DNA of 24,280 nucleotides from the NCBI GenBank assembly GCA_040261965.1, contig JBDQNA010000001.1:1-24280 (forward strand). The letters run 5' to 3'. The position numbers and the translations under genes are program-made. Below, one piece after another: positions 1 through 20,175 of this stretch. The notes under the pieces are model-generated. The model ran no database searches. It was not told the origin of the DNA and worked only from the letters and a program-made list of their open reading frames with translations. This DNA comes from Flavobacteriaceae bacterium (lineage in GTDB: Bacteria > Bacteroidota > Bacteroidia > Flavobacteriales > Flavobacteriaceae). The stretch's first letter is position 1, and every line of letters begins with the position of its first letter.

Positions 1-815
1 CCTGTAAGACGTTGGTCATTGTACGCACCATAAACTTCGATGTGCTCCTTTACAACAGGACGGAATGCTTCACAAATTTTATCATACGTTTCCTTTGAAC
101 CACAAGTTCTAAGTGTTGTGTTTGAGAAGTTTGCATGCATACCTGAACCATTCCAGTCAGTAGCACCGAGTGGTTTTGGGTGATAATCAATAGCTAGACC
201 ATAGTCCTCAGCCAAGCGCTCTAAAATATAACGGGCGATCCATATTTGATCACCTGCCTCGGCAGCACCTTTAGAAAAAATCTGAAATTCCCATTGTCCA
301 GGAGCTACTTCACCATTTGTTCCTTCTACGTTTAGTCCAGCATCCAAACAAATGTCGAGGTGTCGGTCCATGATCTCACGTCCGAAAGAGTTTTTTGCTC
401 CCACAGAACAGTAGAACTGGCCTTGTGGCGTTTGGTCTTTTGGAAAGCCAAGTGGAAGATTTGTTTCTGGATCCCATAAAAAGTATTCTTGTTCAAATCC
501 AAACCAGAAGTCATCATCATCTTCTTCAATGGTTGCACGACCGTTAGAAACGTGTGCTGATCCATCTGCATTAAGGACTTCAGTCATAACCAAATATCCA
601 TTTCTTCTTTCAGGGTCTGGGTAGATGGCAACAGGCTTTAAAAGACAGTCAGAAGACCCTCCCTCAGCTTGAAGCGTAGAACTACCATCAAAAGACCACA
701 TTTCGACATCCTCTAGTTTTCCAGAAAAGTCGCTAACTACTTTTGTTTTACTACGAAGGCTGGCAGTGGGCTTGTAGCCATCCAACCAAATGTATTCAAG
801 TTTTGATTTATTCAT
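1..815 (-). CDS. glnII: Glutamine synthetase type II (GSII, eukaryote-like), 3' end runs off the window; absent from the ORF track
   Basis: Manual translation from ATG at 815 gives MNKSKLEYIWLDGYKPTASLRSKTK...WSFDGSST...FGFEQEY...YCSVG...EGTNGEVAPGQWEFQI...DWNGSGMHANFS...YGAYNDQRLTG. It stays open to base 1 and carries the GSII motifs. Confidence 0.93.
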   Translation of the reverse strand, partial: MNKSKLEYIWLDGYKPTASLRSKTKVVSDFSGKLEDVEMWSFDGSSTLQAEGGSSDCLLKPVAIYPDPERRNGYLVMTEVLNADGSAHVSNGRATIEEDDDDFWFGFEQEYFLWDPETNLPLGFPKDQTPQGQFYCSVGAKNSFGREIMDRHLDICLDAGLNVEGTNGEVAPGQWEFQIFSKGAAEAGDQIWIARYILERLAEDYGLAIDYHPKPLGATDWNGSGMHANFSNTTLRTCGSKETYDKICEAFRPVVKEHIEVYGAYNDQRLT

Positions 816-835
816 GATTTTATAATATGATGAAA

Positions 836-843
836 CAAAAATA
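836..843 (-). promoter_or_regulatory. Bacteroidota housekeeping sigma -7 box (TATTTTTG) for GSII
   Basis: Plus strand CAAAAATA is TAnnTTTG on the minus strand, 20 nt upstream of the ATG at 815. No clear -33 TTTG; that position is occupied by a palindrome. Confidence 0.55.
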
Positions 844-854
844 AAATTTATAAT

Positions 855-878
855 ACACCCACTATGATAGTAGGGTGT
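855..878. promoter_or_regulatory. Palindromic candidate operator A1 (ACACCC-N12-GGGTGT)
   Basis: Perfect 6-bp inverted arms around ACTATGATAGTA, in the divergent GSII/GSIII intergenic region. It resembles the sites at 911, 13242 and 13299. Confidence 0.6.
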
Positions 879-910
879 CTTTTTATAAACATTATACATA
901 TTTTTATAAA

Positions 911-928
911 CCCCTTAAAATAGAGGGG
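911..928. promoter_or_regulatory. Palindromic candidate operator A2 (CCCCT-N8-AGGGG)
   Basis: CCCCTTAAAATAGAGGGG. Its centre is 53 bp from A1 and it shares the TTAAAATAG core with the site at 13299-13317. Confidence 0.6.
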
Positions 929-1014
929 ATATAATTACTAAATATGTAATATTCTTTAGTTTTTACATTAATTTCAAAATGACAAAACAACAAACGTAAT
1001 ACGGCTATTTGATG

Positions 1015-1022
1015 TATATTTG
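1015..1022 (+). promoter_or_regulatory. Housekeeping sigma -7 box (TATATTTG) for GSIII
   Basis: Exact TAnnTTTG match 23 nt upstream of the ATG at 1046. Confidence 0.6.
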
Positions 1023-1045
1023 TTACTTCCTAAAACCTTAAAATC

Positions 1046-3232
1046 ATGAATAAACTGCGTTTTCAAGCCATTCAGGACGCTGTCAGCCGCCTACCAAAAC
1101 CCTTTTATAACGATAAAATAAAATCATCGCTTTTTGCCAGTCACGTCTTTACTAAGAAGGTAATGCGTACATTTTTGACAAAACAAGCTTTTCTTGAAGT
1201 CGATGAAGCTATTGAAAAAGGCACAAAAATTAATCGAAATATTGCCGACCATGTAGCCGCTTCAATGAAAGATTGGGCCATGTCTATGGGTGCTACCCAT
1301 TATACACACTGGTTTCAGCCTTTAACTGGGGCTACTGCCGAAAAGCACGATGCCTTTTTTGACTTTGATTCTAACGGCGATAGCCTTGAGTATTTTGGGG
1401 GTTCGCAATTGGTGCAACAAGAACCAGATGCGTCTAGTTTTCCTAGTGGTGGAATTCGCAACACTTTCGAAGCAAGGGGATATACCGCATGGGACCCTTC
1501 ATCACCAGCCTTCATCTACGGTACCACGCTTTGTGTACCCACAATTTTTGTTTCTTATACAGGTGAAGCTTTGGACAATAAAACACCACTGCTTCGTGCA
1601 CTAAACGCAATTGACGATGCAGCTACACAAGTAGCCAAGTATTTTGATAAAAATGTTACACATGTGCACGCTACCCTTGGGTGGGAACAAGAGTATTTTC
1701 TCATTGATAAGGCACTAGCTTCTTCTAGACCAGATATTATGCTGACGGGCAGAACCCTGGTGGGTCACCCTCCCCCAAAAGGACAGCAGTTGGACGATCA
1801 TTATTTTGGATCAATTCCTTCTCGTGCTATTAATTTTATGCGCGAATTAGAATATGAATCTATGTTGCTGGGAATTCCTGTAAAAACACGTCACAATGAA
1901 GTAGCGCCGAACCAATTTGAATTAGCACCTATTTTTGAGGAAGCCAATCTTGCTGTTGATCATAACGCACTTCTGATGGATATTATGGGTAAGGTGGCCA
2001 GTAAGCATCACTTCAAGGTGCTGCTTCACGAAAAGCCTTTTTCTGGTATCAACGGATCTGGAAAACACAATAACTGGTCGCTGTCTACCAACACAGGTGT
2101 CAATCTCTTAAGCCCGGGGAAGACACCCATGAGTAACTTGCAGTTTTTGACATTTTTCATTACCACCATTAAGGCGGTTCAAAACTATGAATCTCTTGTG
2201 CGCTCTTCTGTAGCTAGTGCAGGAAACGACCACCGTTTGGGTGCTAATGAAGCGCCGCCAGCCATTGTTTCTATTTTTATCGGTTCTCAATTGTCAGCTG
2301 TCCTCGAAAACTTGGAACATGTCTCTAAGGGAAAGCTATCTCCCAAAGAGAAAACAGATTTAAAGCTTAATGTTGTGGGTAAAATCCCGGAGATATTGCT
2401 GGACAACACCGATAGAAACAGGACTTCCCCTTTTGCCTTTACAGGAAATAAATTTGAATTTCGTGCCGTTGGTTCCAATCAAAACTGCGCCATACCCATG
2501 ACTGTTTTAAATACTATCGTAGCCAAGCAGTTAATTGCATTTAAAAACGAAGTTGACGCACTTATTAAGTCCAAAAAACTTAAGAAAGATGACGCTATCT
2601 TTAATGTGTTGCGTGAGTATGTCAAGACCACAAAAAATATTTTGTTTGACGGAGATGGTTATAGCCAATCATGGGAAAAGGAAGCCAAAAGAAGAGGACT
2701 CTCTAATTTGAGGAAAACCCCAGAAGCTTTATCTGTTCGTATGAACAAAGATGTGATTGATTTGTTTGCATCTGTTAATGTCATGAATGTCGTTGAGCAA
2801 AAAGCGCGTTATGAAATTCAATTGGAACAGTATGTGCAAACAGTAGAAATTGAAAGCCTTGTATTAGAAAACCTGGTTAACAATCAAATACTTCCAACGG
2901 CATTTAAATACCAAAGCATGCTGATTGAAAATGTGAAAGGTTTAAAAGAAATCTACGGGGATGACTTCTCAAAATACGCGCCTGTTGCTATGAATGTTAT
3001 CGAAAAAATTAGTGGTATTACAGATAAACTGGCTACTGCTTGTGCAACACTTGCTAAAGAACGAACGAAGGCCAATAGCATGAGCAAGTTTGACGACAGT
3101 GCCCAAATGTATGCTAAAAACGTACTTCCCCTTTTTGATAAAATACGTGAATGTGTAGATGGACTAGAGCTTATTGTTGATGACTCCGCCTGGCCATTAG
3201 CCAAATATCGAGAACTATTATTTTTACGTTAA
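1046..3232 (+). CDS. glnN: Glutamine synthetase type III
   Basis: 728 aa, the typical GSIII length. Motifs ATHYTHWFQPLTG, AEKHDAF, LVQQEPDASSFPSGG, RNTFEARGYTAWD, HNEVAPNQFE, HEKPFSGINGSGKHNNWS, DRNRTSPFAFTGNKFEFRAVG. Confidence 0.96.
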   Translation: MNKLRFQAIQDAVSRLPKPFYNDKIKSSLFASHVFTKKVMRTFLTKQAFLEVDEAIEKGTKINRNIADHVAASMKDWAMSMGATHYTHWFQPLTGATAEKHDAFFDFDSNGDSLEYFGGSQLVQQEPDASSFPSGGIRNTFEARGYTAWDPSSPAFIYGTTLCVPTIFVSYTGEALDNKTPLLRALNAIDDAATQVAKYFDKNVTHVHATLGWEQEYFLIDKALASSRPDIMLTGRTLVGHPPPKGQQLDDHYFGSIPSRAINFMRELEYESMLLGIPVKTRHNEVAPNQFELAPIFEEANLAVDHNALLMDIMGKVASKHHFKVLLHEKPFSGINGSGKHNNWSLSTNTGVNLLSPGKTPMSNLQFLTFFITTIKAVQNYESLVRSSVASAGNDHRLGANEAPPAIVSIFIGSQLSAVLENLEHVSKGKLSPKEKTDLKLNVVGKIPEILLDNTDRNRTSPFAFTGNKFEFRAVGSNQNCAIPMTVLNTIVAKQLIAFKNEVDALIKSKKLKKDDAIFNVLREYVKTTKNILFDGDGYSQSWEKEAKRRGLSNLRKTPEALSVRMNKDVIDLFASVNVMNVVEQKARYEIQLEQYVQTVEIESLVLENLVNNQILPTAFKYQSMLIENVKGLKEIYGDDFSKYAPVAMNVIEKISGITDKLATACATLAKERTKANSMSKFDDSAQMYAKNVLPLFDKIRECVDGLELIVDDSAWPLAKYRELLFLR

Positions 3233-3233
3233 T

Positions 3234-4418
3234 ATGACAAAAAACCCTTCCAGTGAGCGTTATCAAATGCGTGGTGTATCTGCAGATAAAGAAGATGTAC
3301 ACGCAGCTATTGAGAATATAGATAAAGGACTTTTTCCAAAAGCGTTTTGTAAAATTGTTCCGGATTACCTTACTGGAGATGCCGACTATTGTTTGGTGAT
3401 GCATGCCGATGGGGCTGGCACAAAGTCATCTTTAGCATATATGTATTGGAAAAAAACGGGCGACCTTTCTGTGTGGAAGGGGATAGCTCAAGATGCACTG
3501 ATCATGAACATTGATGACTTACTCTGTGTAGGTGCTGTTAATGAAATTCTTATTTCATCGACCATTGGACGGAACAAAAACCACATTCCCGGTGAGGTCA
3601 TTAAAGCTATTATTCAAGGAACCAACGAGCTTGTAGATGAGCTTAATGCACAAGGTATGAAGCTAACGTTAACAGGTGGTGAAACCGCAGATGTTGGTGA
3701 CTTGGTGCGTACTATCATTGTGGATTCTACTGTAACGGCACGCCTAAAGCGCGATCATGTTATTGATAATGCCAACATCAAAGCGGGTGACGTAATTGTA
3801 GGATTGGCTTCTTATGGGCAAGCTTCCTATGAAACCGATTACAATGGCGGTATGGGTAGTAACGGACTTACCTCAGCACGTCATGATGTGTTTAACAAAT
3901 CTCTCGCTGATGAGTTTCCAGAAAGTTTTGATCCATTGGTGCCAAATAATTTGGTTTATACAGGGTCTAAAAACTTAGAAGATGCTGTCGAAGGTGTTGC
4001 TGTAGATGCGGGTAAGTTGGTGTTGTCTCCTACGCGTACATATGCACCTGTCATGAAAGCAATTTTAGATGCCTTTAGCCCTCAAGAAATTCACGGTGCA
4101 GTACATTGTAGTGGAGGCGCCCAAACCAAAGTGCTTCATTTTATTGATAACGGACATATTATCAAAGACAATATGTTTCCCATTCCCCCGCTATTCAAAA
4201 TGATTCAAGCCGAATCAAAAACAGATTGGCGTGAGATGTACAAGGTGTTTAATATGGGTCACAGGTTGGAGCTATACATTTCCCCAGAAAATGCAGATTC
4301 AATTATTAAAATCGCCAAATCGTTTAGCATTGACGCCCAAATTATAGGGCGTGTGGCTGAGCACCCAACAAAAAAACTTACCTTATCCACACCAAACGGA
4401 ACTTTCGAATATGCCTAA
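3234..4418 (+). CDS. purM: Phosphoribosylformylglycinamidine cyclo-ligase (AIR synthase, Bacteroidota type)
   Basis: YQMRGVSADKEDV, HADGAGTK, MNIDDLLCVGA, GGETADVGD, GMGSNGLTSARH, HCSGGAQTK, VFNMGHR. Confidence 0.9.
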   Translation: MTKNPSSERYQMRGVSADKEDVHAAIENIDKGLFPKAFCKIVPDYLTGDADYCLVMHADGAGTKSSLAYMYWKKTGDLSVWKGIAQDALIMNIDDLLCVGAVNEILISSTIGRNKNHIPGEVIKAIIQGTNELVDELNAQGMKLTLTGGETADVGDLVRTIIVDSTVTARLKRDHVIDNANIKAGDVIVGLASYGQASYETDYNGGMGSNGLTSARHDVFNKSLADEFPESFDPLVPNNLVYTGSKNLEDAVEGVAVDAGKLVLSPTRTYAPVMKAILDAFSPQEIHGAVHCSGGAQTKVLHFIDNGHIIKDNMFPIPPLFKMIQAESKTDWREMYKVFNMGHRLELYISPENADSIIKIAKSFSIDAQIIGRVAEHPTKKLTLSTPNGTFEYA

Positions 4419-5016
4419 GCTATTATTGATTATTGCAATTGCTGTTGGTGTGAATACGCTGTCTTACGCTCAAGAAGGGGAGGACCTGTTTATGCTATTT
4501 GACGAAAACATTGAAGCGCCACCTTTGCTTCCAGAACGCATGATTTTTACACAGCGAATTTTTTGGGGTGAAAAAGGTATTTTTAGAACTACAGGTGTTG
4601 CTCCCCTAACTATGGAACAGCGCCAAAAAGAGCTTAAGGTTCGTCGTATAATGCTTACCACACACCAAGTGCTTGGCTACGCAACTTTAGCAGCTATGGT
4701 TGCTCAAGGAATTATTGGCGGAAAATTATATAACGGAGACGACAGCTTGTATAGCCTTCATAAAACCATGGGTGATGTGGTGAATATTGGTTATTTTACT
4801 ACTGCGGGAATGTCTCTCTTTGCACCGCCTCCACTCATCAATAAAAAGGTGCGCGGATTCTCATCAATTAAAGCACATAAAATACTAGCAACTGTTCACT
4901 TTTCCGCTATGGTAGCTACAAACATATACAAAGACAAAAATCCTGAAATCCATAAAGGGGCCGCTTATACCGCCTTTGGAAGTTATGCGATGGCTGTTTT
5001 GGTTTTTAAATTTTAA
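4411..5016 (+). CDS. Uncharacterised membrane protein (201 aa) with a predicted signal peptide and four His-bearing helices; possibly cytochrome b561-like
   Basis: Preferred start is ATG 4411, which overlaps the purM stop and gives the signal-peptide-like MPKLLLIIAIAVGVNTLSYA/Q. His at 85, 117, 156, 163 and 181 lies at or near the start of hydrophobic segments. The function call is inference. Confidence 0.6.
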   Translation: MPKLLLIIAIAVGVNTLSYAQEGEDLFMLFDENIEAPPLLPERMIFTQRIFWGEKGIFRTTGVAPLTMEQRQKELKVRRIMLTTHQVLGYATLAAMVAQGIIGGKLYNGDDSLYSLHKTMGDVVNIGYFTTAGMSLFAPPPLINKKVRGFSSIKAHKILATVHFSAMVATNIYKDKNPEIHKGAAYTAFGSYAMAVLVFKF

Positions 5017-5017
5017 A

Positions 5018-5551
5018 ATGATACGTCACTTATTCCTCTTTTTAATTGTTTCTTTCTCATTAGGGGCTCAACAACTCCTAGTAGAAACCGCTGCATCAGA
5101 AATCACTTACGATGCCTCACATGTAGTACATGATTGGTCTGGTACTTCAAAACAAGTCCAAGGGGTGGTTGTGCTCAAGGATGCTGTCCCTTCTCGCATG
5201 GCTATTGCTACCTCAGTTGCCTCGTTTGATTCTAGAAATGAGGGTCGTGATGCTCACGCCCTTGAAGTGTTGGAGGCTTTAGTATTTCCAAAAGTTTCAT
5301 TTTACGCAGACACCTTTGCTTTAGAGGGCGAAACCCTAAGCATAACTGGGAATTTAAAATTTCACGGTAAAACAATACGCCTCACAACTACTGCCAATTG
5401 GGTTAAAAAAGAGGATGGTTGGTTGCTCGAAGGGGATTTTGACTTTAAGCCTTCTGAATTTGATATTACGCTTCCCGCCTTTATGCTTGTCAAGATTCGT
5501 GACAATATACATATCAGCTTTAGGTTGGAGTTGCGTACCTTTGCTTTATAG
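5018..5551 (+). CDS. YceI-family periplasmic polyisoprenoid/lipid-binding protein
   Basis: Start ATG 5018, 1 nt after the upstream stop. Signal peptide, then SEITYDASH..HDWSG, VASFDSRNEGRDAH (cf. RDxH), ITGNLKFHGKT, GDFDFKPSEFDI. Confidence 0.8.
   Translation: MIRHLFLFLIVSFSLGAQQLLVETAASEITYDASHVVHDWSGTSKQVQGVVVLKDAVPSRMAIATSVASFDSRNEGRDAHALEVLEALVFPKVSFYADTFALEGETLSITGNLKFHGKTIRLTTTANWVKKEDGWLLEGDFDFKPSEFDITLPAFMLVKIRDNIHISFRLELRTFAL
5536..5543 (+). promoter_or_regulatory. Internal -7 box (TACCTTTG) for prfA, inside the 3' end of the YceI gene
   Basis: TAnnTTTG followed by C, 11 nt before the prfA ATG. Confidence 0.45.
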
Positions 5552-5554
5552 TAC

Positions 5555-6634
5555 ATGCTACAAGAAAAACTACAGATTGTAAAACAACGTTTTGATGAGG
5601 TTTCTGATCTTATCATTCAGCCTGATATTATCGCTGATCAGAAGCGATACATTTCCTTGAATCGTGAATACAAGGATTTGAATGCATTGATGGAAAAACG
5701 TGCGGAATATCTAAGCCTTTTAGGTAATAAGGATGAGGCAGAGGCCATTATTTCAGAAGAGAAGGATCCTGAGATGCTTGCAATGGCTAAAGAAGAATTG
5801 GATGTTTCCTCAAAAAAACTACTTTCCCTTGAAGATGAAATTCGCTTTATGCTTATTCCCAAGGATCCTGAAGATGTTAAAAATGTTATGATGGAGCTTC
5901 GTGCAGGTACAGGCGGTGATGAGGCGAGTATTTTTGCCGGCGACTTGTTCCGTATGTATACGAAATATTGTGAGGGTAGGGGCTGGAAGGTAAACGTTGT
6001 GGATATGAGCGAAGGTACTTCTGGTGGATTTAAAGAAATTATTTTTGAAGTAAATGGAGACCACGTATATGGGACATTAAAGTTTGAATCTGGAGTTCAC
6101 CGTGTTCAACGAGTGCCACAAACCGAAACCCAAGGACGTGTTCATACATCAGCAGCTACTGTTATGGTACTGCCCGAAGCGGAGGAGTTTGATATAGAGC
6201 TCGATATGTCTGAGATTAGAATTGAGCGTACTACCTCAACAGGCCCAGGAGGTCAGTCAGTTAATACAACCTATTCTGCTATCAAATTGCATCATGAGCC
6301 AACAGGTATGATTGTCAGTTGCCAAGATCAAAAATCTTCTCACAAGAATCTTGAAAAGGCTTTGAAGGTACTGCGTTCAAGACTCTATGACATGGAGCTT
6401 GCCAAAAAGCAGGCTGCTGATTCAGAAAAACGAAAAAGTATGGTTTCTTCTGGAGATCGATCTGCTAAAATAAGAACGTATAATTATCCACAAGGACGTG
6501 TCACAGACCACCGCATTGGATTAACTTTGTATGATCTGCAAAATATCATCAATGGAGATATTCAAAAGCTGATTGATGAAATGCAACTCTATCAAAATAC
6601 CGAGAAACTCAAATTTTCAGACGAATTGCTGTAG
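5555..6634 (+). CDS. prfA: Peptide chain release factor 1
   Basis: GGQ motif (GPGGQSVN), PxT recognition loop ([13 protein letters not shown]), [26 protein letters not shown]. Confidence 0.97.
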
Positions 6635-6635
6635 T

Positions 6636-7451
6636 ATGACACGACAAGATTTATACAATCAAATTCAGTTGAAAAAATCATTCTTGTGTTTGGGTCTAGA
6701 TCCTGACCTAGAGAAAATGCCTAATCAGTTTATTGCTTCAAGCGAAGAACCCCTTTTTGATTTTTGTAAGGCCATAGTTGATGAAGTGCAACACCTTTGC
6801 GTAGCGGTCAAAATAAATACAGCATTTTTTGAAGCTTATGGCGAAACGGGGTATGCATCTTTGTCTAAACTCATACATTATATTAAATCACACTATCCCG
6901 ATTTATTCACAATTGCTGATGCCAAACGTGGCGATATAGGCAACACATCTTTGCGCTATGCTAAGGCCTTTTTTGAAGCCATGCCCTTTGACGCCATTAC
7001 CATAGCTCCTTATATGGGTAAAGACTCCGTTGAACCTTTCTTAACATATAAAGACAAGCATGCCATTTTATTGGCCTTGACTTCTAATCATGGAGCTGAT
7101 GATTTTCAAGTAGCTAAAAATGCGGAAACCCCATTATTTAAAGAAGTACTGACCACTTCTTTAAACTATGAAAATGCCGATAGGCTTATGTATGTGGTTG
7201 GCGCTACTAAAGCAGAATATTTAAAAGAAATTAGAGTATTAGTACCTGATGCATTTTTGTTGATACCAGGTATTGGTGCACAAGGCGGTAGCCTTAAAGA
7301 TGTTTTTGAAAATGGTGCAAATAAACAAATAGGTCTTTTGGTTAACTCGTCTCGTGGGATTTTATATGCCAGTAAGGGTGAAGATTATGTTACTGCTGCT
7401 GCTAAAGTTGCTGCTTCACTTCAAAATCAAATGCAAAAACTACTCGCCTGA
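6636..7451 (+). CDS. pyrF: Orotidine-5'-phosphate decarboxylase (type 2 subfamily)
   Basis: LCLGLDPD, KINTAFFE, DAKRGDIGNT, LLIPGIGAQGG, NSSRGILYA. Start placed at ATG 6636, just after the prfA stop. Confidence 0.95.
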   Translation: MTRQDLYNQIQLKKSFLCLGLDPDLEKMPNQFIASSEEPLFDFCKAIVDEVQHLCVAVKINTAFFEAYGETGYASLSKLIHYIKSHYPDLFTIADAKRGDIGNTSLRYAKAFFEAMPFDAITIAPYMGKDSVEPFLTYKDKHAILLALTSNHGADDFQVAKNAETPLFKEVLTTSLNYENADRLMYVVGATKAEYLKEIRVLVPDAFLLIPGIGAQGGSLKDVFENGANKQIGLLVNSSRGILYASKGEDYVTAAAKVAASLQNQMQKLLA

Positions 7452-8233
7452 TGCTGCATTACAGTCGCTTCATACATCAAACATCTTCTGAATGGGTCAC
7501 CTTTGTTCACGGCGCAGGAGGTAGTTCGTCTATTTGGTTTAAACAAGTGCGCGACTATGCCAAGCATTACAATGTATTGTTGCTAGATCTTCGTGGTCAC
7601 GGGAATTCTAAACCCACTATTAAACGCGCCTTTGAAAAGCGGTATACCTTCGATAGTATTGTTGATGATATTATTGAAGTTTTAGATCATGAAAAGATTA
7701 AAAGTTCCCATTTTATAGGTATTTCTCTGGGTACTATATTGATTCGTCAATTGGCAGAGAATCATCCTGAACGTGTTTCGAGCATGATTATGGGCGGCGC
7801 AATTATGAAACTTAATTTTAGATCACAGATATTAATGCGTCTGGGGAATATCGTTAAGTCGGTGATACCTTACTTGTGGCTCTATCGTTTTTTTGCATTT
7901 ATTATCATGCCTAAAAAAAACCATCGTGAGTCTAGGTTGCTTTTTGTTCGTGAGGCAAAAAAACTTTATCACAAAGAGTTTTTACGTTGGTACAGGCTTA
8001 CTTCAGAACTAAAGCCATTACTTCGATTGTTCAGACAGGTAGATGTTGGCATTCCTACGCTCTATGTCATGGGAGAAGAAGACTATATGTTTCTGCCTAG
8101 TATACAAAAGTTGGCTGCAATGCACCAGACATCGCGAATAACTGTAGTCCCTGATTGTGGACATGTTGTTAACGTAGAACAGCCTACGTTTTTTAATACG
8201 ACAACGCTGCGTTTTCTGAAATCCCTTAACTAG
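7451..8233 (+). CDS. Alpha/beta-fold hydrolase
   Basis: FVHGAGGSS oxyanion loop, DLRGHG, nucleophile elbow GISLG, GEED, CGHVVNVEQP. TGATG overlap with pyrF. Confidence 0.88.
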   Translation: MLHYSRFIHQTSSEWVTFVHGAGGSSSIWFKQVRDYAKHYNVLLLDLRGHGNSKPTIKRAFEKRYTFDSIVDDIIEVLDHEKIKSSHFIGISLGTILIRQLAENHPERVSSMIMGGAIMKLNFRSQILMRLGNIVKSVIPYLWLYRFFAFIIMPKKNHRESRLLFVREAKKLYHKEFLRWYRLTSELKPLLRLFRQVDVGIPTLYVMGEEDYMFLPSIQKLAAMHQTSRITVVPDCGHVVNVEQPTFFNTTTLRFLKSLN

Positions 8234-9084
8234 GTAAATATCACAGTTTTGTTTCCATAGACAAGCACCTTTTTCTCAACGTGGTGCTTAACGGCATTTG
8301 CCAATACCATTTTTTCCAAATCTCGCCCTTTGGCAATTAATTGCGAAACACTATGGTTGTGTGATACGTGTGCCACTCCCTGCTCAATAATTGGTCCTGC
8401 ATCCAGTTCTTCTGTAACATAGTGACTGGTAGCGCCAATGATCTTTACGCCCCGTTCGAAAGCGGAATGATAGGGCTTTGCTCCTGGAAAGGCAGGTAAA
8501 AATGAGTGGTGAATGTTGATAATTTTATTCCCGTATGCTTCAATAAGATCTGTAGGTATGATTTGCATATAACGCGCAAGAACCACAAAATCCACCTTGT
8601 GTTTTGCCAAGAGCGCAAGTTGTTGTATTGTAGCAGCTGCTTTTGTTTCTTTGGTTACTGGAGTGTGGAAAAAAGGGATGTCAAAGGCTTTTGCTATTGA
8701 GGCTAAGTCTTCGTGATTGCTCAGTATAAAGGGGATTTCAACGGCGAGTTCTCCAGACTTATAACGTCCCAATAAATCATAAAGGCAATGATCGTATTTT
8801 GATACAAAAATAGCCATCTTCGGTTTGTAGTGTAGTGGCTGGTGACTCCAAGTCATGTTGTATTCGTTTGCCAGTTCGTTTTCAAACAGACTAACAAAAT
8901 TTTGATACGAACATAGTTGTTCGTCTAATTCGGCTTGAAGGCGCATAAAAAAAGCACCATTTTCTCTGTCAACATACTGGTCAATGTATTGGATGTTTCC
9001 TTTTTGTTGGTAAACAAAAGAAGTTACATCTGCAATAATTCCCTTCTTGTCTGGACACTGAATAACAAGTGTAATGGCGTACAT
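8230..9084 (-). CDS. purU: Formyltetrahydrofolate deformylase
   Basis: N-terminal ACT domain (CPDKKGIIA), VSKYDHCL, VVLARYMQI, INIHHSFLPAFPGAKPY, GATSHYVT, LDAGPII. Start placed at ATG 9084 (284 aa). Confidence 0.96.
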   Translation of the reverse strand: MYAITLVIQCPDKKGIIADVTSFVYQQKGNIQYIDQYVDRENGAFFMRLQAELDEQLCSYQNFVSLFENELANEYNMTWSHQPLHYKPKMAIFVSKYDHCLYDLLGRYKSGELAVEIPFILSNHEDLASIAKAFDIPFFHTPVTKETKAAATIQQLALLAKHKVDFVVLARYMQIIPTDLIEAYGNKIINIHHSFLPAFPGAKPYHSAFERGVKIIGATSHYVTEELDAGPIIEQGVAHVSHNHSVSQLIAKGRDLEKMVLANAVKHHVEKKVLVYGNKTVIFT

Positions 9085-9098
9085 ATGTTGTTTTGCTG

Positions 9099-9106
9099 CA
9101 AACATA
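9099..9106 (-). promoter_or_regulatory. Possible -7 box (TATGTTTG) for purU
   Basis: Plus strand CAAACATA, directly after the amt terminator and 14 nt before the purU ATG. Confidence 0.4.
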
Positions 9107-9109
9107 CAT

Positions 9110-9149
9110 AAAAAACAAACCCGAGTGTTTATAAAAAACGCTCGGGTTT
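9110..9149 (-). terminator. Intrinsic terminator after the PII-amt genes
   Basis: AAACCCGAGTGTTT-N5-AAACGCTCGGGTTT (14-bp arms, one mismatch), followed on the minus strand by GTTTTTT. Confidence 0.8.
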
Positions 9150-9171
9150 AGGTTGCTAATTAGTTGTTGTG

Positions 9172-10410
9172 CTATTTTTTAGAAACACTAAAGTCTGCAT
9201 AAGCCGACATGCCGTGTTCAGCATCGTCAAGCCCTCCAATTTCATGTTCTTTAGTTACGCGCAGTCCTATTGTTGCATTTACAACAAGCACTATGAGTAA
9301 TGCACTCAAAACACAGAAAGCACCAACAATACCTACTCCTGCGAGTTGTAGCATAAACTGCTTGGCACTAGCCATATTACCAAAGATACCTACAGCAAGC
9401 GTCCCCCACATTCCTGCAAAAAGGTGAACGGCAATAGCGCCTACCGGATCATCTAATTTTAGTTTTTCAAGCAATGCGATGGCAAGTACAACAATAATAC
9501 CGCCAATACCGCCAATAATCATGGCTTCGCCTGTCGACATTTGATCTGCTCCAGCTGTTATGGCAACTAATCCACCAAGAACACCATTCATAAACATGGT
9601 TAAATCATAGTTTTTGTAAAGTATGTGTGAAAATATTGAAGCTACAATCCCACCTGCTGCTGCAGCTAAACTTGTGGTCACAAGTACCAATGAAGTCGTT
9701 GCAGGATCAGCAGATAATACTGAGCCACCATTAAAGCCAAACCAGCCTAACCAGAGGATAAGAACCCCCCCAGCCGCTAAAGGCATATTGTGGCCAAAAA
9801 TTGGGTTTGAAGTTCCATCGGCGCTGTATTTGCCAATACGTGCCCCCAAAAAGTATATGGTGATAAGCGCTGCCCATCCTCCGACAGAGTGTACAAGCGT
9901 AGATCCCGCAAAGTCATAAAACCCCCAATGGGATAGAAATCCGCCTCCCCATTGCCATGAACCTACGATAGGGTATATAATCCCAACGTATAATATGGCT
10001 ATTACAAAAAAGGCCTCTAGCTTGATGCGTTCTGCAACAGCTCCAGAAATGATGGTAGCAGCAGTGGCAGCAAACATCCCTTGAAACAAGAAATCTGTCC
10101 ACCAAGTATAACCACCACTTGCATAAGTAGCAGTCATGCCTCCTTCAGGTGGAGCAATACCCCACCCAGCAAATTTAAAAAAGCCAGTAGCTCCTTCTTC
10201 AAAACCGGGGTACATGAGGTTAAAACCAGCGAGTGCATACAGCAGTAGCCCAGCGGTAATAACAAAAAAGTTTTTGAATAAAATGTTAACGGTATTTTTT
10301 TGACGTGTCAGCCCTGCTTCAAGTAGCGAGAAGCCCATGTGCATAAAAAATACGAGTGCTGTACAGATCATCATCCATACATTGTTAGCAGTAAATAGTG
10401 CAGTGTCCAT
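9172..10410 (-). CDS. amtB: Ammonium transporter (Amt family), distal copy
   Basis: DFAGSTLVHSVGG and DDPVGAIAVH (twin His), WLGWFGFNGGS, GLDDAEHG. It lies directly downstream of the PII gene. Confidence 0.96.
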   Translation of the reverse strand: MDTALFTANNVWMMICTALVFFMHMGFSLLEAGLTRQKNTVNILFKNFFVITAGLLLYALAGFNLMYPGFEEGATGFFKFAGWGIAPPEGGMTATYASGGYTWWTDFLFQGMFAATAATIISGAVAERIKLEAFFVIAILYVGIIYPIVGSWQWGGGFLSHWGFYDFAGSTLVHSVGGWAALITIYFLGARIGKYSADGTSNPIFGHNMPLAAGGVLILWLGWFGFNGGSVLSADPATTSLVLVTTSLAAAAGGIVASIFSHILYKNYDLTMFMNGVLGGLVAITAGADQMSTGEAMIIGGIGGIIVVLAIALLEKLKLDDPVGAIAVHLFAGMWGTLAVGIFGNMASAKQFMLQLAGVGIVGAFCVLSALLIVLVVNATIGLRVTKEHEIGGLDDAEHGMSAYADFSVSKK

Positions 10411-10420
10411 TAATGTTTGT

Positions 10421-10759
10421 TTAGTTTAAAGTGTATCTGCCTTTTTCGCCCGTTCTAATGCGGTAGGCTTCCTCAACGGGGAGAACAAATATTTTTCCAT
10501 CACCAATGTTTCCCGTCCCACCAGCTTCGATAATGGCCTGTACAGCCGGCTCAACAAAGTCGTCATTTACCACTATTGAGAGCATTCTGCGTTCAATAGC
10601 GGAAGTACTATAGGATACTCCTCTATATACACGCCCTTTATTTTCATTCCCAAGGCCAGTTACATCCCAATAACTGAAAAATGTAACCCCAGCTTCGTGG
10701 AGTTTGTTTTTTACATCCTCAAACTGCGTTTTTCGGATGAGTGCTTCTATTTTTTTCAT
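10421..10759 (-). CDS. glnK: P-II family nitrogen regulator (GlnK/GlnB-like)
   Basis: 112 aa from ATG 10759. MKKIEALIR, YRG T-loop, TGNIGDGKIFV, RIRTGE. Adjacent to amt. Confidence 0.93.
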   Translation of the reverse strand: MKKIEALIRKTQFEDVKNKLHEAGVTFFSYWDVTGLGNENKGRVYRGVSYSTSAIERRMLSIVVNDDFVEPAVQAIIEAGGTGNIGDGKIFVLPVEEAYRIRTGEKGRYTLN

Positions 10760-10787
10760 TTTTAAATAATTAAGGCGCAAGTATAAT

Positions 10788-10821
10788 AAAAATAAAGGGA
10801 TTGAGTAGACTCAATCCCTTT
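10788..10821 (-). terminator. Perfect hairpin, probable intrinsic terminator, between the first amt and the PII gene
   Basis: AAAGGGATTGAGT-AG-ACTCAATCCCTTT (13-bp perfect inverted repeat), followed on the minus strand by ATTTTT. Confidence 0.7.
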
Positions 10822-10880
10822 CACATTATAAACTATCTAATTAACAAACTAACTACTAACTAAATTAAGTTTAAAAATTT

Positions 10881-12158
10881 TTATGGATTTAGATCGCTGT
10901 TGAAAGCAAGCTCTCCGTGTTCTGCCATATCTAGGCCTTTTAACTCGTCTTCTTTTGAAACACGTATTCCAATAGTTACTTTAAGTACGTACAAAACAAT
11001 TAAAGAAGTGATCACCGCCCAAGCGCCGTATGCAGCAACTCCTATCGCTTGAATGCCAAGTTGAGAAGCACCACCACCGTTTAATAAGCCAATTCCTGTT
11101 GCGCCATCAACGCCCCAAAGACCTATAACGAGCGTACCCCAAGCACCAACTACACCATGTGCAGAAGCAGCTCCAATAGCGTCATCAATCTTAAGTTTTT
11201 TCTCAATAAACTCAATGGAGAATACCACAATAATACCACCAACTAAACCAGCCAAGAAACCACCTTCAAATGTCATATTACCACAACCTGCAGTAATGGC
11301 AACCAAACCAGCAATTGCGCCGTTTAATGTTTGGGATAAACTAGGTTTCCCAAGGTATAACCAAGATGTAAACAATGCGCCAAGTGCACCAGCAGCAGCA
11401 GCAATGTTGGTAACCATAACAACAGCTGAAGCAGCAATTGAGTCGTCACCTCCCCAAGCAAGTTGAGAACCACCGTTGAAGCCAAACCATCCTAGCCAAA
11501 GGATAAATACACCTAAAGTTCCTAATAAAAGGTTACTTCCTGGAATAGCATTGACTTTTCCATCTTTATATTTTCCAAATCTTGGACCTACCATCCATGC
11601 AGCACATAAAGCCGCCCATCCACCAACAGAGTGAACAATTGAAGATCCTGCGAAGTCGATGAATCCGAGGTCAGCTAACCAAGCACCGTCTCCATACCAC
11701 TGCCATCCACCAGAAATAGGGTAAATGAAAGCTGTTAAGAATAATGTGAATATAATGTAAGTGCTGTATTTAGTTCTTCCTGCTACAGCTCCAGAAACGA
11801 TCGTGGCTGCAGTTGCAGCAAATACCGTCTGGAAGAATACATCGTGAGCACCAGCCCCTGGATTCATCCATATATCACTGATAGAAAGGAAACCAGATGC
11901 ATCCTTAGTTCCGTACATAAGCCCGTAACCTAGCGCCCAGAAACTAATCGTTCCTACGCTGATATCCATGAAATTTTTCATGGCAATATTAGCTGCGTTT
12001 TTAGCACGTGTTAATCCAGATTCTACTAGCGTAAATCCTGCTTGCATGAAGAAAACAAGAATTCCAGATAAAAGAATCCACAATATTGTAAAGTCTTCAT
12101 TTGCGTCAACAGCTACTGAAGACGTAATGATGTTTGGTATTGTAGTTAATAATGACAT
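10881..12158 (-). CDS. amt: Ammonium transporter (Amt family), proximal copy
   Basis: FFMQAGFTLVESG, DFAGSSIVHSVGG and DDAIGAASAH (twin His), WFGFNGGS, GLDMAEHG. Confidence 0.96.
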   Translation of the reverse strand: MSLLTTIPNIITSSVAVDANEDFTILWILLSGILVFFMQAGFTLVESGLTRAKNAANIAMKNFMDISVGTISFWALGYGLMYGTKDASGFLSISDIWMNPGAGAHDVFFQTVFAATAATIVSGAVAGRTKYSTYIIFTLFLTAFIYPISGGWQWYGDGAWLADLGFIDFAGSSIVHSVGGWAALCAAWMVGPRFGKYKDGKVNAIPGSNLLLGTLGVFILWLGWFGFNGGSQLAWGGDDSIAASAVVMVTNIAAAAGALGALFTSWLYLGKPSLSQTLNGAIAGLVAITAGCGNMTFEGGFLAGLVGGIIVVFSIEFIEKKLKIDDAIGAASAHGVVGAWGTLVIGLWGVDGATGIGLLNGGGASQLGIQAIGVAAYGAWAVITSLIVLYVLKVTIGIRVSKEDELKGLDMAEHGELAFNSDLNP

Positions 12159-12186
12159 ATCTTAAATTATTGTGATTAAAATTTAA

Positions 12187-13176
12187 TTAGAAAGAATAAA
12201 TAGCTGCCAATACGAATGAAGATAGGCTATCTGTTGCTCCGTCAGCATCCATGTAGTATGCGTCTGATGCAGTGTCAACTCTAAATTCTGGCTTAATAGT
12301 CATATTTCCAGAAGTGAAGCTTCCAGTAAGTGTGATAGAAGTATTGTCGCCATCACCAAAAGCACCTAAAGCACCATTTTCAGTAAAAGCCTCAAATCTT
12401 CCACCAAGTGTGAATGCGTCAGATAAAGCAACTTGTGGATAAAGTGCAACACCAGAGAACTCAATAGCATCATCCTCGTAAGTAGTTGCGTTTATGCCTA
12501 AGAAGAAACTGTCTGAAATATCAAGACCACCTGTAAAATCAAACTGCGTAGCACCTTGTCCAGTCAATAAGTTTAGGTATTGTCCGTATAGACCCAATTG
12601 AGCACCAAACATATAGTCATCACCCGTTGGTTGAGATTCTGTAGCGTCTGTAGTATTGAGTACACCAAGCATTAAAGAAACATCATCAGAAAGCGCAATA
12701 TCAGCTTTTAAACCTGTGTGTGAGAAAGGTCCGTAAGAGAACATGTATGATGTAGAATAGTTAAAGTTAGCAGCAGGAGAAATTACTTCATATCCTAAGA
12801 AAGTATTGAAGTTACCAAGTGTCAACGTGAAGCTATCGCTTACATTATAATATACATATAATTGATTAACAATACTTGAAGATCCTGAAGAACCAAAAAC
12901 GGCATCTGCACCTCTTGGTCCATACACCAAATCAGCAACAAAACCTGATTTCTCTCCTTCATAAGAAAGTACAATGTTAGCCATACCAAGCGAAAAGCCG
13001 TTTAGGTTAGCAAAAGAAGTACCCGGAGCATACTCACTACTCCTGTAATAAGAGTCAACGGTACCAGAAACACTGAATGTTGACTCCTCTTGGGCTTGTA
13101 CAGTAGTCATTCCTCCGAATACTAAAAAAGCTACAAGAGCTGAAAACGTTAAAATAGATGATAAATTATTTTTCAT
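12187..13176 (-). CDS. Outer-membrane beta-barrel porin (OmpL-like/BBP2 type)
   Basis: Signal peptide ending VQA/QEE, alternating beta-strands, IVNQLYVYY, GNFNTFLGYEVISP, NYSTSYMFSYGPF, C-terminal Phe (AAIYSF). Family assignment is from recall of motifs. Confidence 0.8.
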   Translation of the reverse strand: MKNNLSSILTFSALVAFLVFGGMTTVQAQEESTFSVSGTVDSYYRSSEYAPGTSFANLNGFSLGMANIVLSYEGEKSGFVADLVYGPRGADAVFGSSGSSSIVNQLYVYYNVSDSFTLTLGNFNTFLGYEVISPAANFNYSTSYMFSYGPFSHTGLKADIALSDDVSLMLGVLNTTDATESQPTGDDYMFGAQLGLYGQYLNLLTGQGATQFDFTGGLDISDSFFLGINATTYEDDAIEFSGVALYPQVALSDAFTLGGRFEAFTENGALGAFGDGDNTSITLTGSFTSGNMTIKPEFRVDTASDAYYMDADGATDSLSSFVLAAIYSF

Positions 13177-13220
13177 AATGTAATGTTTAGTTAATTATTT
13201 ATTTTGAATTAATAATGAGC

Positions 13221-13228
13221 CAAAAGTA
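13221..13228 (-). promoter_or_regulatory. Housekeeping sigma -7 box (TACTTTTG) for the porin-amt operon
   Basis: Plus strand CAAAAGTA, 44 nt upstream of the porin ATG. Confidence 0.6.
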
Positions 13229-13241
13229 TACTAATTAGTGT

Positions 13242-13268
13242 TTACCCCCTTATTAAATTAGGGGGTAA
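13242..13268. promoter_or_regulatory. Palindromic candidate operator B1 (TTACCCCCT-N9-AGGGGGTAA)
   Basis: Perfect 9-bp arms, overlapping the expected -33 position of the porin-amt promoter. Confidence 0.65.
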
Positions 13269-13298
13269 GTGTATATATTTATATAAAAAATAATATTA

Positions 13299-13317
13299 AC
13301 CCCATTAAAATAGGGGT
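13299..13317. promoter_or_regulatory. Palindromic candidate operator B2 (ACCCC-ATTAAAATA-GGGGT)
   Basis: Centre is 53 bp from B1; the core is nearly identical to site A2. Confidence 0.6.
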
Positions 13318-13355
13318 ATAATAAAATTTATATGCTTTTTTTGTTTATAGTGTTG

Positions 13356-13733
13356 CTAAAACTGCTTATGCAATAACATTCCAGCATATATACAGGCCAT
13401 TCCTAGCGTAAAAGTGCCAATACTGTAAATAAAGAAGTTGAAAAGCTGGCCTTGCTCAATAAAGCGCATGTTCTCTAATGTAAAAGTGGAAAAGGTAGTC
13501 AGGCCGCCACAAAAGCCAACAGCCAATAACATATGCTGCGTATTGGATACAGAAGACTTTGTGCTGAGAAAACCCATAAGTAAGCCCAACAACAAACACC
13601 CTATTATATTTGCGATAAGTGTTGCCAAAGGTAACTGAGGAGATATGGGCTTTATCAAGAGTCCTATACTATATCTAAAAAGGCTTCCAAGCCCCCCACC
13701 TAGAAAAACGAGTAAGAAAGAAATCATATTCAT
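13356..13733 (-). CDS. crcB: Fluoride efflux channel Fluc/CrcB
   Basis: GGGLGSLFRY, ATLIANIIGC, GFCGGLTTFSTF. Start at 13733 or 13727. Confidence 0.93.
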   Translation of the reverse strand: MNMISFLLVFLGGGLGSLFRYSIGLLIKPISPQLPLATLIANIIGCLLLGLLMGFLSTKSSVSNTQHMLLAVGFCGGLTTFSTFTLENMRFIEQGQLFNFFIYSIGTFTLGMACIYAGMLLHKQF

Positions 13734-13734
13734 G

Positions 13735-13917
13735 CTACACGATGCTTTTAACACCTACCAGTAAGCTGACAAAAATTAAAAAGCCTATCAACACCCAAAA
13801 ACTTCCTTTAAAATATTTTTTACTTTTTTGTTTGTCCTTTTTGTAGCTATATATAATGACGAAAGTGAAGCTTACAATAAAAAAAAGGGCAAAAATCAAT
13901 TGACCGTTGCTGAACAT
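13735..13917 (-). CDS. Small two-helix membrane protein (60 aa), function unknown
   Basis: MFSNGQLIFALFFIVSFTFVIIYSY-KKDKQKSKKYFK-GSFWVLIGFLIFVSLLVGVKSIV: two hydrophobic segments with a basic loop. Its stop lies 1 nt before crcB. Confidence 0.7.
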   Translation of the reverse strand: MFSNGQLIFALFFIVSFTFVIIYSYKKDKQKSKKYFKGSFWVLIGFLIFVSLLVGVKSIV

Positions 13918-18102: not shown

Positions 18103-18184
18103 ACGATAGATTTATCTATAGTTATTTTTCTTTTTCATAGCAATTTTTTCCCACCCTCTTTTTGAGGGTGGGTTTTCTTTTTTT
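18103..18184 (+). ncRNA. Candidate small RNA (about 80 nt) between dnaJ and mscS
   Basis: A promoter box upstream, a short hairpin (ATAGAT-TT-ATCTAT), a U-rich single-stranded tract and a terminator. No family recognised. Confidence 0.35.
18150..18184 (+). terminator. Intrinsic terminator
   Basis: CCCACCCTC-TTTTT-GAGGGTGGG followed by TTTTCTTTTTTT. Confidence 0.85.
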
Positions 18185-19029: not shown

Positions 19030-20175
19030 ATGGCACAAATTTTAATTGTAGAGGACGAGGCAAATATTCGTCGTGTATTGCATAAGATACTTATTGATGT
19101 TGACAAAAACATCAACATAAGCGAGGCCGCCGACGGAGTAGAAGCCATATCAAAGGTGGATACCCAGACATATGACCTTATATTATGTGACATTAAAATG
19201 CCTAAAAAAGATGGAATTGAGGTACTGGAGCATATTCAAAACGTATCTCCACAATCAGCAGTAGTGATGATATCAGGTCACGGGGATTTAGAAACTGCCG
19301 TAAAGGCAATGCGTATGGGTGCTTATGATTATATATCAAAACCACCTGACTTAAACCACCTGCTACAGACGGTCAATGCTGCGCTTCAAAGAGACACTTC
19401 ACCAAATAAAAAGGTCAAAAGTATTGCTGTTCCTAAGCAGTATACGATGATTGGAAATTCAGAAGCCATTCAAACCATTCACAACATGGTTGAAAAAGTA
19501 GCGCCAACCATGGCGCGGGTTATGATTCAAGGCCCTAATGGCAGTGGTAAAGAATTGGTTGCAAGAGCATTGCACTTTAAAAGTAATCGTGCCAGCGCCC
19601 CTTTTGTAGAAGTGAATTGTGCTGCAATTCCCACAGAGCTTATAGAAAGTGAACTTTTTGGGCATATTAAAGGTGCTTTTACCTCTGCACACAAAGATCG
19701 CAAAGGAACTTTTGAGCAGGCACAAGGCGGCACGCTGTTTTTAGATGAAATAGGAGACATGAGTCTTGCTGCGCAAGCCAAAGTCTTGCGCGCCTTGGAA
19801 GAGCATAAAATTCAACGGGTTGGAAGTGCAAAAACCATTGCTGTGGATGTTCGTGTTATTGCAGCTACAAATAAAAACATTAAAGAAGAGATTGCTCAAA
19901 ATCGCTTTCGTGAAGACTTATACCATCGATTGGCTGTGATAGAAATTCATGTGCCTGCACTGAACAATAGAAGAGATGATATTCCTCTTTTAGCAGATCA
20001 TTTCTTATCCCTTTTAATACCAAAAAAGGAACTTCTTACTGAGGCTGTTGTTGCGCTGCAAAAAATGGATTGGACAGGGAATATTAGGCAATTGCGTAAT
20101 TTTATCGAGCGATTACATATTTTGGGTGGACATCAAATATCCGCACAAGATGTGTCAACATATACCCTTATATAA
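19030..20175 (+). CDS. Sigma54-interacting response regulator (receiver + AAA+), lacking a C-terminal HTH
   Basis: Receiver with CDIKMP and ISKP; Walker A GPNGSGKE; ESELFGHIKGAFTSA; Walker B LFLDE; RFREDLYHRL; WTGNIRQLRN. The protein ends about 20 aa later. Confidence 0.9.
   Translation: MAQILIVEDEANIRRVLHKILIDVDKNINISEAADGVEAISKVDTQTYDLILCDIKMPKKDGIEVLEHIQNVSPQSAVVMISGHGDLETAVKAMRMGAYDYISKPPDLNHLLQTVNAALQRDTSPNKKVKSIAVPKQYTMIGNSEAIQTIHNMVEKVAPTMARVMIQGPNGSGKELVARALHFKSNRASAPFVEVNCAAIPTELIESELFGHIKGAFTSAHKDRKGTFEQAQGGTLFLDEIGDMSLAAQAKVLRALEEHKIQRVGSAKTIAVDVRVIAATNKNIKEEIAQNRFREDLYHRLAVIEIHVPALNNRRDDIPLLADHFLSLLIPKKELLTEAVVALQKMDWTGNIRQLRNFIERLHILGGHQISAQDVSTYTLI

Follow-up and report, generated by a model that had tools for sequence, protein, structure and literature searches.

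Paired palindromes before nitrogen-assimilation genes of a marine flavobacterium as candidate operators of a nitrogen regulon

Two nitrogen loci with paired dyads

The DNA analysed here, 24,280 nucleotides (nt) long and hereafter called the window, is the entire contig C5 in the draft genome of a Flavobacteriaceae bacterium (1.13 Mb in 162 contigs, approximately 65% complete, 41% G+C). Gene content and relatives characterise the source as a marine flavobacterium with a small genome; other members of its genus have 1.4-1.8 Mb, and sequence near-identical to the window was found in marine metatranscriptomes. The window carries two nitrogen-assimilation loci (Table 1), one with two divergent glutamine synthetase (GS) genes of different type, GSII and GSIII, and the other with a porin gene followed by an ammonium transporter gene (porin-amt). 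The control region of each locus contains a pair of palindromes, the dyads A1/A2 and B1/B2. Such dyad pairs precede GS, Amt and glutamate synthase (gltB) genes in this genome and in many relatives and, as far as sequence comparison can tell, very probably are the docking sites of the master nitrogen regulator of this group.

The truncated GSII protein scores 282 bits with the NCBIfam model GlnII. The real start of its gene lies at position 816 and not at the ATG found further upstream at 899; the N-terminus aligns from 816 in 17 relatives. At the second locus, the porin and Amt genes (10881-13176, minus strand) are the ones read from the dyad-bearing promoter, and crcB is located upstream of the porin gene in every member of the genus. 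Genes outside the window were called by us as open reading frames and with Pfam.

Table 1. Coordinates of the genes, predicted promoter elements and dyads at the two nitrogen loci of the window.
Feature	Position	Strand	Basis or description
GlnII-type glutamine synthetase (GSII), 5' part, continues past the window edge	3-816	-	Pfam Gln-synt_N and Gln-synt_C
-7 box of GSII promoter (inferred), TATTTTTG	836-843	-	sequence
Dyad A1, promoter-proximal for GSII	855-878	.	ACACCC-N12-GGGTGT, centre 866.5; core ACCC-N12-GGGT at 857-876
Spacer A1-A2, A/T-rich, with two T-runs, TTTTTATAAAC and ATTTTT	879-910	.	conserved columns in genus alignment
Dyad A2, distal for GSII	910-929	.	CCCCT-N8-AGGGG at 911-928, centre 919.5; as ACCCC-N10-GGGGA
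-7 box of GSIII promoter (inferred), TATATTTG	1015-1022	+	invariant TATATTTGT block in genus alignment
Type III glutamine synthetase (GSIII), divergent from GSII	1046-3232	+	Pfam GSIII_N, Gln-synt_C and Gln-synt_C-ter
Second Amt	9172-10410	-	Pfam and NCBIfam
P-II, glnK-like	10421-10780	-	Pfam and NCBIfam; likely start 10759
Intrinsic terminator between amt1 and P-II	10794-10821	-	stem 12 bp, loop 4 nt, -17 kcal/mol
Amt, downstream gene of porin-amt	10881-12158	-	Pfam
BBP2-type porin	12187-13176	-	Pfam
-7 box of porin-amt promoter (inferred), TACTTTTG	13221-13228	-	sequence
Dyad B1, promoter-proximal for porin-amt	13242-13268	.	TTACCCCCT-N9-AGGGGGTAA, centre 13255
Dyad B2, distal for porin-amt	13299-13317	.	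ACCCC-N9-GGGGT, centre 13308
crcB, upstream of porin	13356-13754	-	

The initial annotation of the window had described both promoters as sharing one paired-palindrome design. All four palindromes were recovered when the sequence was re-read, and the distances recomputed from their centres are 53 bp for A1-A2 and 53 bp for B1-B2; the distances of the proximal centres from the TAnnTTTG-type -7 boxes, given as 23.5 bp (A) and 27 bp (B), agreed as well. A2 is located approximately 86 bp upstream of the GSIII -7 box, and B2 approximately 40 nt past the crcB stop codon, where it could double as the crcB terminator. Elsewhere in the intergenic regions of the window no such site occurs, in line with the initial annotation, the sole other CCC...GGG dyad being the dnaJ terminator at ~18150-18176. 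A 9-mer, TTAAAATAG, had also been reported as common to the distal sites. It is present in both, but it is not retained in relatives and is best read as A/T-rich spacer without a specific common word.

The operator consensus is tACCCC, followed by 8-10 A/T-rich bases and GGGGTa, the C-run and the G-run being 17-19 bp apart at their outer edges. Alignment of 140 half-sites gives w-w-t-A-CCC-C-t-w-A-A. The A before the C-run is found in 129 of these half-sites without having been selected for, and the outer edges are 17-19 bp apart in 66 of 70 dyads. This unselected flank and the fixed edge distance indicate that the half-sites reflect conservation of sequence, beyond mere pairing of the two arms.

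Restriction of the motif to nitrogen genes and its conservation

In the whole draft genome, CCCC-N6-14-GGGG has 30 matches. Those in intergenic DNA with an A/T-rich spacer are the ones at the GSII/GSIII and porin-amt loci, while the others lie inside genes or form G+C-extended terminator stems. A stricter rule (A, a C-run of at least 3, a spacer of 8-12 nt with at least 80% A/T, a G-run of at least 3, T) returns four matches in 80 kb of intergenic DNA, against 0.45 +/- 0.62 expected from first-order Markov simulations. B1 and B2 are among these four, together with a contig C9 site before gltB and a contig-edge site that reads as coding; A1 and A2 just fail the rule. In a weight-matrix scan of intergenic sites, with the window's own sites in the training set, A2 ranks third and A1 approximately tenth. 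The motif is rare in unrelated intergenic DNA by both counts, and a chance origin of the palindromes is excluded.

Within this 65%-complete genome, intergenic copies of the motif occur at three nitrogen loci only, and it is not a dispersed repeat of the REP (repetitive extragenic palindromic) or MITE (miniature inverted-repeat transposable element) type. A spacer in G052, a genome of another family (L091, ~1480-1800), does contain at least three palindromes of the type CCCCC-TTTTTAAA-GGGG(G), which would be expected if the dyads were a small repeated or mobile palindromic element; this cluster looks like a local repeat family rather than a set of nitrogen operators. The dyads of the window are confined to nitrogen loci, they occupy fixed, orthologous positions in different species and families, and the four observed strict-rule matches contrast with the 0.45 expected. 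That they represent a mobile element of the REP/MITE kind, or chance in A/T-rich spacers, can be regarded as extremely improbable.

The spacer between GSII and GSIII is 233-237 nt long in 18 species of the genus. In their alignment the conserved islands are both -7 boxes, the CCC and GGG arms of A1 and A2, and the two T-runs, while the rest has diverged. The CCC and GGG columns of A1 are near-invariant, and the bases inside both dyads vary. A strict CCC/GGG rule is passed by A1 and A2 together in 14 of the 18 species, where their centres are 52.5-54.0 bp apart. The T-runs TTTTTATAAAC and ATTTTT are conserved over the genus to the same degree as the dyad arms; they may represent a bend, an UP-like element or a further protein site.

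At porin-amt, the distal dyad is nearly always intact in the genus and is the best conserved site of the array, and the proximal dyad is either intact or half-degenerate. A distance of 52.2-53.2 bp separates the two in species that have both. Three species contain a third dyad 52-53 bp further upstream, and three- and four-site arrays hold the same period as the pairs. The second, paralogous porin loci of the same genomes served as a negative control and are devoid of the dyad. In several genus genomes, the dyad-free region upstream of this second paralogue contains a conserved TTTCCCC...TTTTTTT block, and in some species (L033, L047) a porin copy is located directly after amt and not before it. 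The initial annotation had itself named conservation of the 53-bp spacing in orthologous promoters as a test; as far as this test was run, a spacing of 52-54 bp is kept over the genus.

The motif is also found before other nitrogen genes. In five relatives, ACCCC-N7-11-GGGGT retrieves terminators (G+C-extended stems with A-/T-run flanks), the two known loci, and the spacer before gltB, which encodes the large subunit of glutamate synthase. The gltB spacer carries a dyad pair in this genome (contig C9) and in two relatives, with an overall spacing of 53-54 bp: here the dyads are 54 bp apart, at -234 and -180 from the start codon, and in one relative they are found at -235 and -182. Since the divergent neighbour of gltB encodes an NhaD-type antiporter, the dyads in this spacer probably serve gltB.

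In other families of the Flavobacteriales, the motif before GSIII genes is often more perfect (TACCCCC-N9-GGGGGTA) and occurs in pairs 52-53 bp apart; over other genera and families the spacing is 52-54 bp at GSIII, glnK and ald, the alanine dehydrogenase gene. A search for perfect matches (TACCCC, A/T core, GGGGTA) in 201 high-quality Flavobacteriales genomes returned 16 sites, compared with 5 for the reversed pattern as control. Twelve of the 16 mark nitrogen genes: seven precede GSIII, three precede glnK-amt, one lies between ureABC and a gene for an UrtA-type binding protein, and one precedes ald. Three sites fall inside genes and one in a local repeat cluster. At ald, a dyad pair 53.5 bp apart is present in a second genus. 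In G175 (L084), ureABC (3-1325) and the UrtA-type gene (1577-2785) are divergent and have one perfect dyad in common; it precedes the transporter gene's TACTTTTG box by 15 nt, and a half-site is found approximately 50 bp upstream. Outside the Flavobacteriales, the perfect sites of a phylum-wide scan are terminator-like; in a weight-matrix scan of 42 families from other orders of the Bacteroidia, approximately 6-7 had good dyads before GSIII.

The enrichment at nitrogen genes, which the initial annotation had proposed to look for, is therefore seen at GSIII, glnK-amt, ureABC/urtA, ald and gltB, all of which carry the motif. Its suggestion that one regulator co-controls ammonium uptake and glutamine synthesis is supported by a motif that is both conserved and linked to nitrogen genes. 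We read the four palindromes of the window as putative operators recognised by a single dimeric protein that binds DNA sequence-specifically and controls a nitrogen-assimilation regulon; this reading, together with the activator mode described below, is given a probability of about 0.8.

Promoter geometry and proposed mode of action

The position of the dyads relative to the -7 box is fixed as well. At the GSII promoter, CAAAAATA is invariant in 18 of 18 genus sequences, and a TAnnTTTG box is present at the equivalent position before the porin gene in 14 relatives of the genus. Neither the GSII nor the porin-amt -7 box has a TTTG -33 element upstream; an arm of A1 or B1 is found there, which bears out the earlier placement of the proximal sites where a -33 element belongs. 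In 17 of 18 species, 13-14 nt separate the end of the A1 G-run from the GSII -7 box, and the G-run of B1, in gene orientation, ends 16 nt before the porin-amt box. Over the genus, the proximal G-run is separated from the porin-amt box by 16-18 nt in the seven species that have a strict proximal dyad; elsewhere the proximal dyad is degenerate. A gap of 15-18 nt between dyad and TAnnTTTG also occurs at GSIII, glnK and urtA promoters of other genera, and in two cases it is one helical turn longer. Relative to transcription starts inferred via the TAnnTTTG boxes, the centre of the proximal dyad is at approximately -37 to -40.

Activator-dependent promoters of class II and class III, such as those served by CRP, FNR and NtcA, have a palindrome near -40 and a second site upstream. 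The dyads are read here as activator operators because their spacing of five turns and the predicted position of the proximal one correspond to such promoters. Judging from the positions of the -7 boxes, the proximal dyad of GSII and of porin-amt would take the place of the absent -33 element, and the second dyad, 53 bp or five helical turns upstream, would be presented on the same face of the helix. The promoters would be weak by themselves. Under nitrogen scarcity, the regulator would occupy the proximal site and recruit RNA polymerase in a class II-like manner, and the dimer bound upstream may assist through cooperative binding, DNA looping or a second contact with the polymerase (class III-like); the dimer-of-dimers or looping regulator put forward in the initial annotation is likewise a hypothesis. 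Possible signals are 2-oxoglutarate, glutamine, and the state of P-II or GS.

The sign of regulation could also be the opposite. A repressor acting through the same sites would occupy the -33 region of GSII and porin-amt under nitrogen excess and loop to the upstream dyad, in the manner of GlnR, AmtR or NrpR. The overlap of the proximal dyad with the core promoter fits this possibility, operator pairs five turns apart are suited to repression loops, and several known nitrogen regulators do repress. On the other hand, the lack of a -33 TTTG is what is expected of activator-dependent promoters, the dyads of other promoters are positioned one turn further or far upstream and would not occlude the polymerase there, and conservation is in many species higher at the distal site than at the one that overlaps the core promoter. 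Repression is a serious alternative to the activator reading, but on this evidence an unlikely one.

Several points weigh against the operator reading in general or against its activator form. Binding over the -33 position could just as well block the polymerase, and all start-relative positions rest on the TAnnTTTG boxes. The gltB dyads, and the GSIII dyads in this genus, are 85-200 bp away from a recognisable -7 box. The spacing of half-sites shifts by 1-2 bp, and B1 is an outlier at 21 bp. Related species are not independent samples, so that counts over relatives overstate independence, and the weight matrix was trained in part on the window's own sites. Finally, in the scans described in the next section, no candidate regulator gene adjoins the sites or has the motif upstream.

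Four marine metatranscriptomes provide information on expression, as contigs that show presence, not absence, and perhaps include close strains, so that they constitute weak evidence. GSII, with a contig word depth of 50-160, and porin-amt, with 15-43, are the best-covered parts of the window, far above the neighbouring genes. The contigs cover 11200-13143 well; depth is 0-0.55 in the bin 13077-13543, which holds B1 and B2, and no listed contig piece extends to the dyads. In the same data sets GSIII has a depth of 0-4, compared with 50-160 for GSII, and in the sea the two genes, which have one control region, seem to differ strongly in expression. GSIII is followed after 2 nt by a gene for an AIR-synthase-related protein (PurM/ThiL/SelD-like; 3234-4418, plus strand), which scores under every equivalog cut-off; because of this short distance between the GSIII stop and the next start, the two are probably co-transcribed.

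Each dyad can be folded into a hairpin (-7 to -15 kcal/mol), and this raises the question of whether the palindromes act in RNA, as intrinsic terminators (B2 for crcB), as attenuators or as part of a small RNA. A simple scan calls A1 and B2 terminator-like, B2 follows the crcB stop in all genus members, and a conserved T-run stands behind A1 on the plus strand. However, the neighbours of A1/A2, of the gltB pair and of the ure/urt site are divergent genes, which leaves nothing to terminate at these places. The stems show no covariation and always consist of a C-run and a G-run with conserved flanking A and T, their loops are 8-12 nt long, and their stability is below that of the window's genuine terminators (-17 to -19 kcal/mol), for which the terminator at 10794-10821 served as yardstick. 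In terminators, a constant 53-bp spacing or a constant distance to the -7 box would be meaningless. Rfam, scanned over the whole window, gave no match in these regions at E up to 1, and the dyads are upstream of the inferred transcription starts, with no listed metatranscriptome contig piece extending to them. A function as RNA hairpins is accordingly given very little credence here, and the reading as DNA operators is retained.

Candidate regulators and comparison with known systems

The survey of regulator families comprised Crp/Fnr, Rrf2, LysR, NtrC-like, AsnC and MerR-like proteins. A Crp/Fnr regulator was rejected for the genus: the HTH_Crp_2 and cNMP_binding models have no match in the complete genome G007 and none above the cut-off in the near-complete G004, where HTH_Crp_2 gives one weak match of 21.8 bits, and both genomes carry dyads. 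Rrf2 proteins were considered since type-2 sites of IscR have CCC and GGG arms. The single Rrf2 gene per genome is divergent from cysH/cysD and thus probably belongs to sulfur metabolism; its G007 copy (L114, 1498-1911) has a C-terminal cysteine cluster and probably encodes a sulfur or cysteine regulator. LysR is likewise represented by a single gene per genome, and its product has the GHC...C motif of the OxyR type. The window itself encodes an NtrC-like response regulator of 381 amino acids (19030-20175, plus strand), the gene of which starts directly after an mscS-like gene. This protein has receiver, sigma-54 AAA+ and lid domains and no HTH_8, and the promoters are not of the sigma-54 type; lacking a C-terminal helix-turn-helix (HTH), it cannot be the dyad-binding protein on its own.

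Two families remain as candidates. Every genus genome examined encodes two AsnC-type proteins, and one of their genes (G007, L135 1291-1767) is located 10 nt upstream of the gene for phosphoenolpyruvate (PEP) carboxylase (from 1777), an anaplerotic enzyme supplying the carbon skeletons for nitrogen assimilation. Because AsnC/Lrp proteins control gltBD, asnA and ald in other bacteria, the AsnC-type proteins are tentatively placed first, with low confidence. The second candidate is a MerR-like protein of 106 amino acids, also present in every genus genome examined (G007, L138 1420-1740). It belongs to the core regulators of the Bacteroidia: 40 of the 46 genomes sampled encode it in a single copy, with 44-58% identity, a phylogenetic profile that does not discriminate. 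Its best NCBIfam match is HspR, and the TnrA model gives 33 bits against a cut-off of 140 bits, all matches being far below cut-off; weak matches to TnrA and GlnR structures in the PDB have E ~1e-4. No dyad is present upstream of the AsnC-type or MerR-like genes. An autoregulated regulator gene was found neither in weight-matrix scans of this genome nor in perfect- and relaxed-pattern scans of ten larger genomes. No regulator gene stands beside the target genes, the recurrent neighbours of which encode a Na/Ca exchanger, TatA, CrcB and NhaD.

A more specific proposal, to which we give somewhat less than even odds, concerns the regulator itself: Flavobacteriales and some further Bacteroidia would have a master nitrogen regulator with the dyads as its operator, outside the NtrC, NtcA/CRP, GlnR-OmpR, AmtR-TetR and NrpR groups that are known as main switches, and acting as a five-turn phased class II/III activator on the phylum's unusual -33/-7 promoters. 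It could be, for example, an AsnC-type protein that senses glutamine or 2-oxoglutarate, or a minimal MerR-like protein that reads the state of GS or P-II.

A full-text search of a searchable library retrieved no description of a nitrogen regulator or operator in Flavobacteria or Bacteroidetes, nor of this motif, which agrees with the statement of the initial annotation that no characterised nitrogen regulator is known from Flavobacteria; Weinberg 2010 covers the cyanobacterial glnA RNA only. What is new here is a nitrogen-regulon operator in a phylum without a characterised nitrogen regulator in the literature searched. A defined operator of 20-23 bp and a small, coherent regulon (GSII, GSIII, porin-amt, glnK-amt, gltB, urease and urea transporter, alanine dehydrogenase) make nitrogen sensing directly testable in the Bacteroidota, which are major degraders of organic matter in sea, soil and gut. 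The motif can be used as bait for the regulator, as a predictor of nitrogen-controlled genes in uncultured marine flavobacteria, and as an indicator of nitrogen limitation in metatranscriptomes. If the activator reading is true, these promoters would be the first example of an activator-dependent architecture for the -33/-7 promoters of the phylum.

Compared with established consensus sequences, the motif matches none of the sites of NtrC, NtcA, GlnR/TnrA or NrpR, as the initial annotation had already noted. A close functional parallel is offered by NtcA, the cyanobacterial regulator of the CRP/FNR family, which binds GTA-N8-TAC approximately 22 nt upstream of the -10 box. There a palindrome stands in for the upstream hexamer of the promoter, a fixed distance away from the downstream box, as the proximal dyads would do here, and the regulon content is much alike (GS, amt, urea uptake). 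The sites differ: half-sites are approximately 11 bp apart in the NtcA and CRP sequences (GTA-N8-TAC or TGTGA-N6-TCACA) and approximately 14-15 bp apart in ACCCC-N8-10-GGGGT, and Crp-family domains were not detected in the complete and near-complete genus genomes that have dyads. The class II/III promoters of Escherichia coli CRP and FNR, with tandem sites near -41.5 and -91 to -93, resemble the window in the proximal site, here predicted near -40, and in a second one 52-53 bp, or five turns, upstream on the same helix face, but here the polymerase is of the Bacteroidota type, with -33/-7 promoters, and the starts are placed by way of the -7 boxes. In the case of NtrC and sigma-54, neither the -24/-12 element GG-N10-GC nor TGCACC-N5-GGTGCA is seen in 817-1045 or 13177-13355, which contain TAnnTTTG boxes instead.

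GlnR and TnrA of Bacillus, minimal members of the MerR family, likewise bind palindromes at glnA and amtB-glnK, often two per promoter, and the genus encodes a MerR-like protein of the same size class. Their 17-bp site TGTNA-N7-TNACA is however absent from both regions, and nothing ties the MerR-like protein to the dyads. Lrp/AsnC proteins (E. coli Lrp at gltBD, AsnC at asnA, mycobacterial AldR at ald) resemble the present case in their helically phased arrays of A/T-centred palindromes and in their targets, which overlap at gltB and ald. Their known sites are 13-15 bp long and usually approximately three turns apart, in contrast to the two to three dyads at a 53-bp period described here. Because the defining site sequences or regulators of the NtcA, CRP, NtrC, GlnR/TnrA and NrpR systems were sought and not found, the architecture is best regarded as a member of none of these five, but as one that would work like NtcA-type and class II/III CRP promoters.

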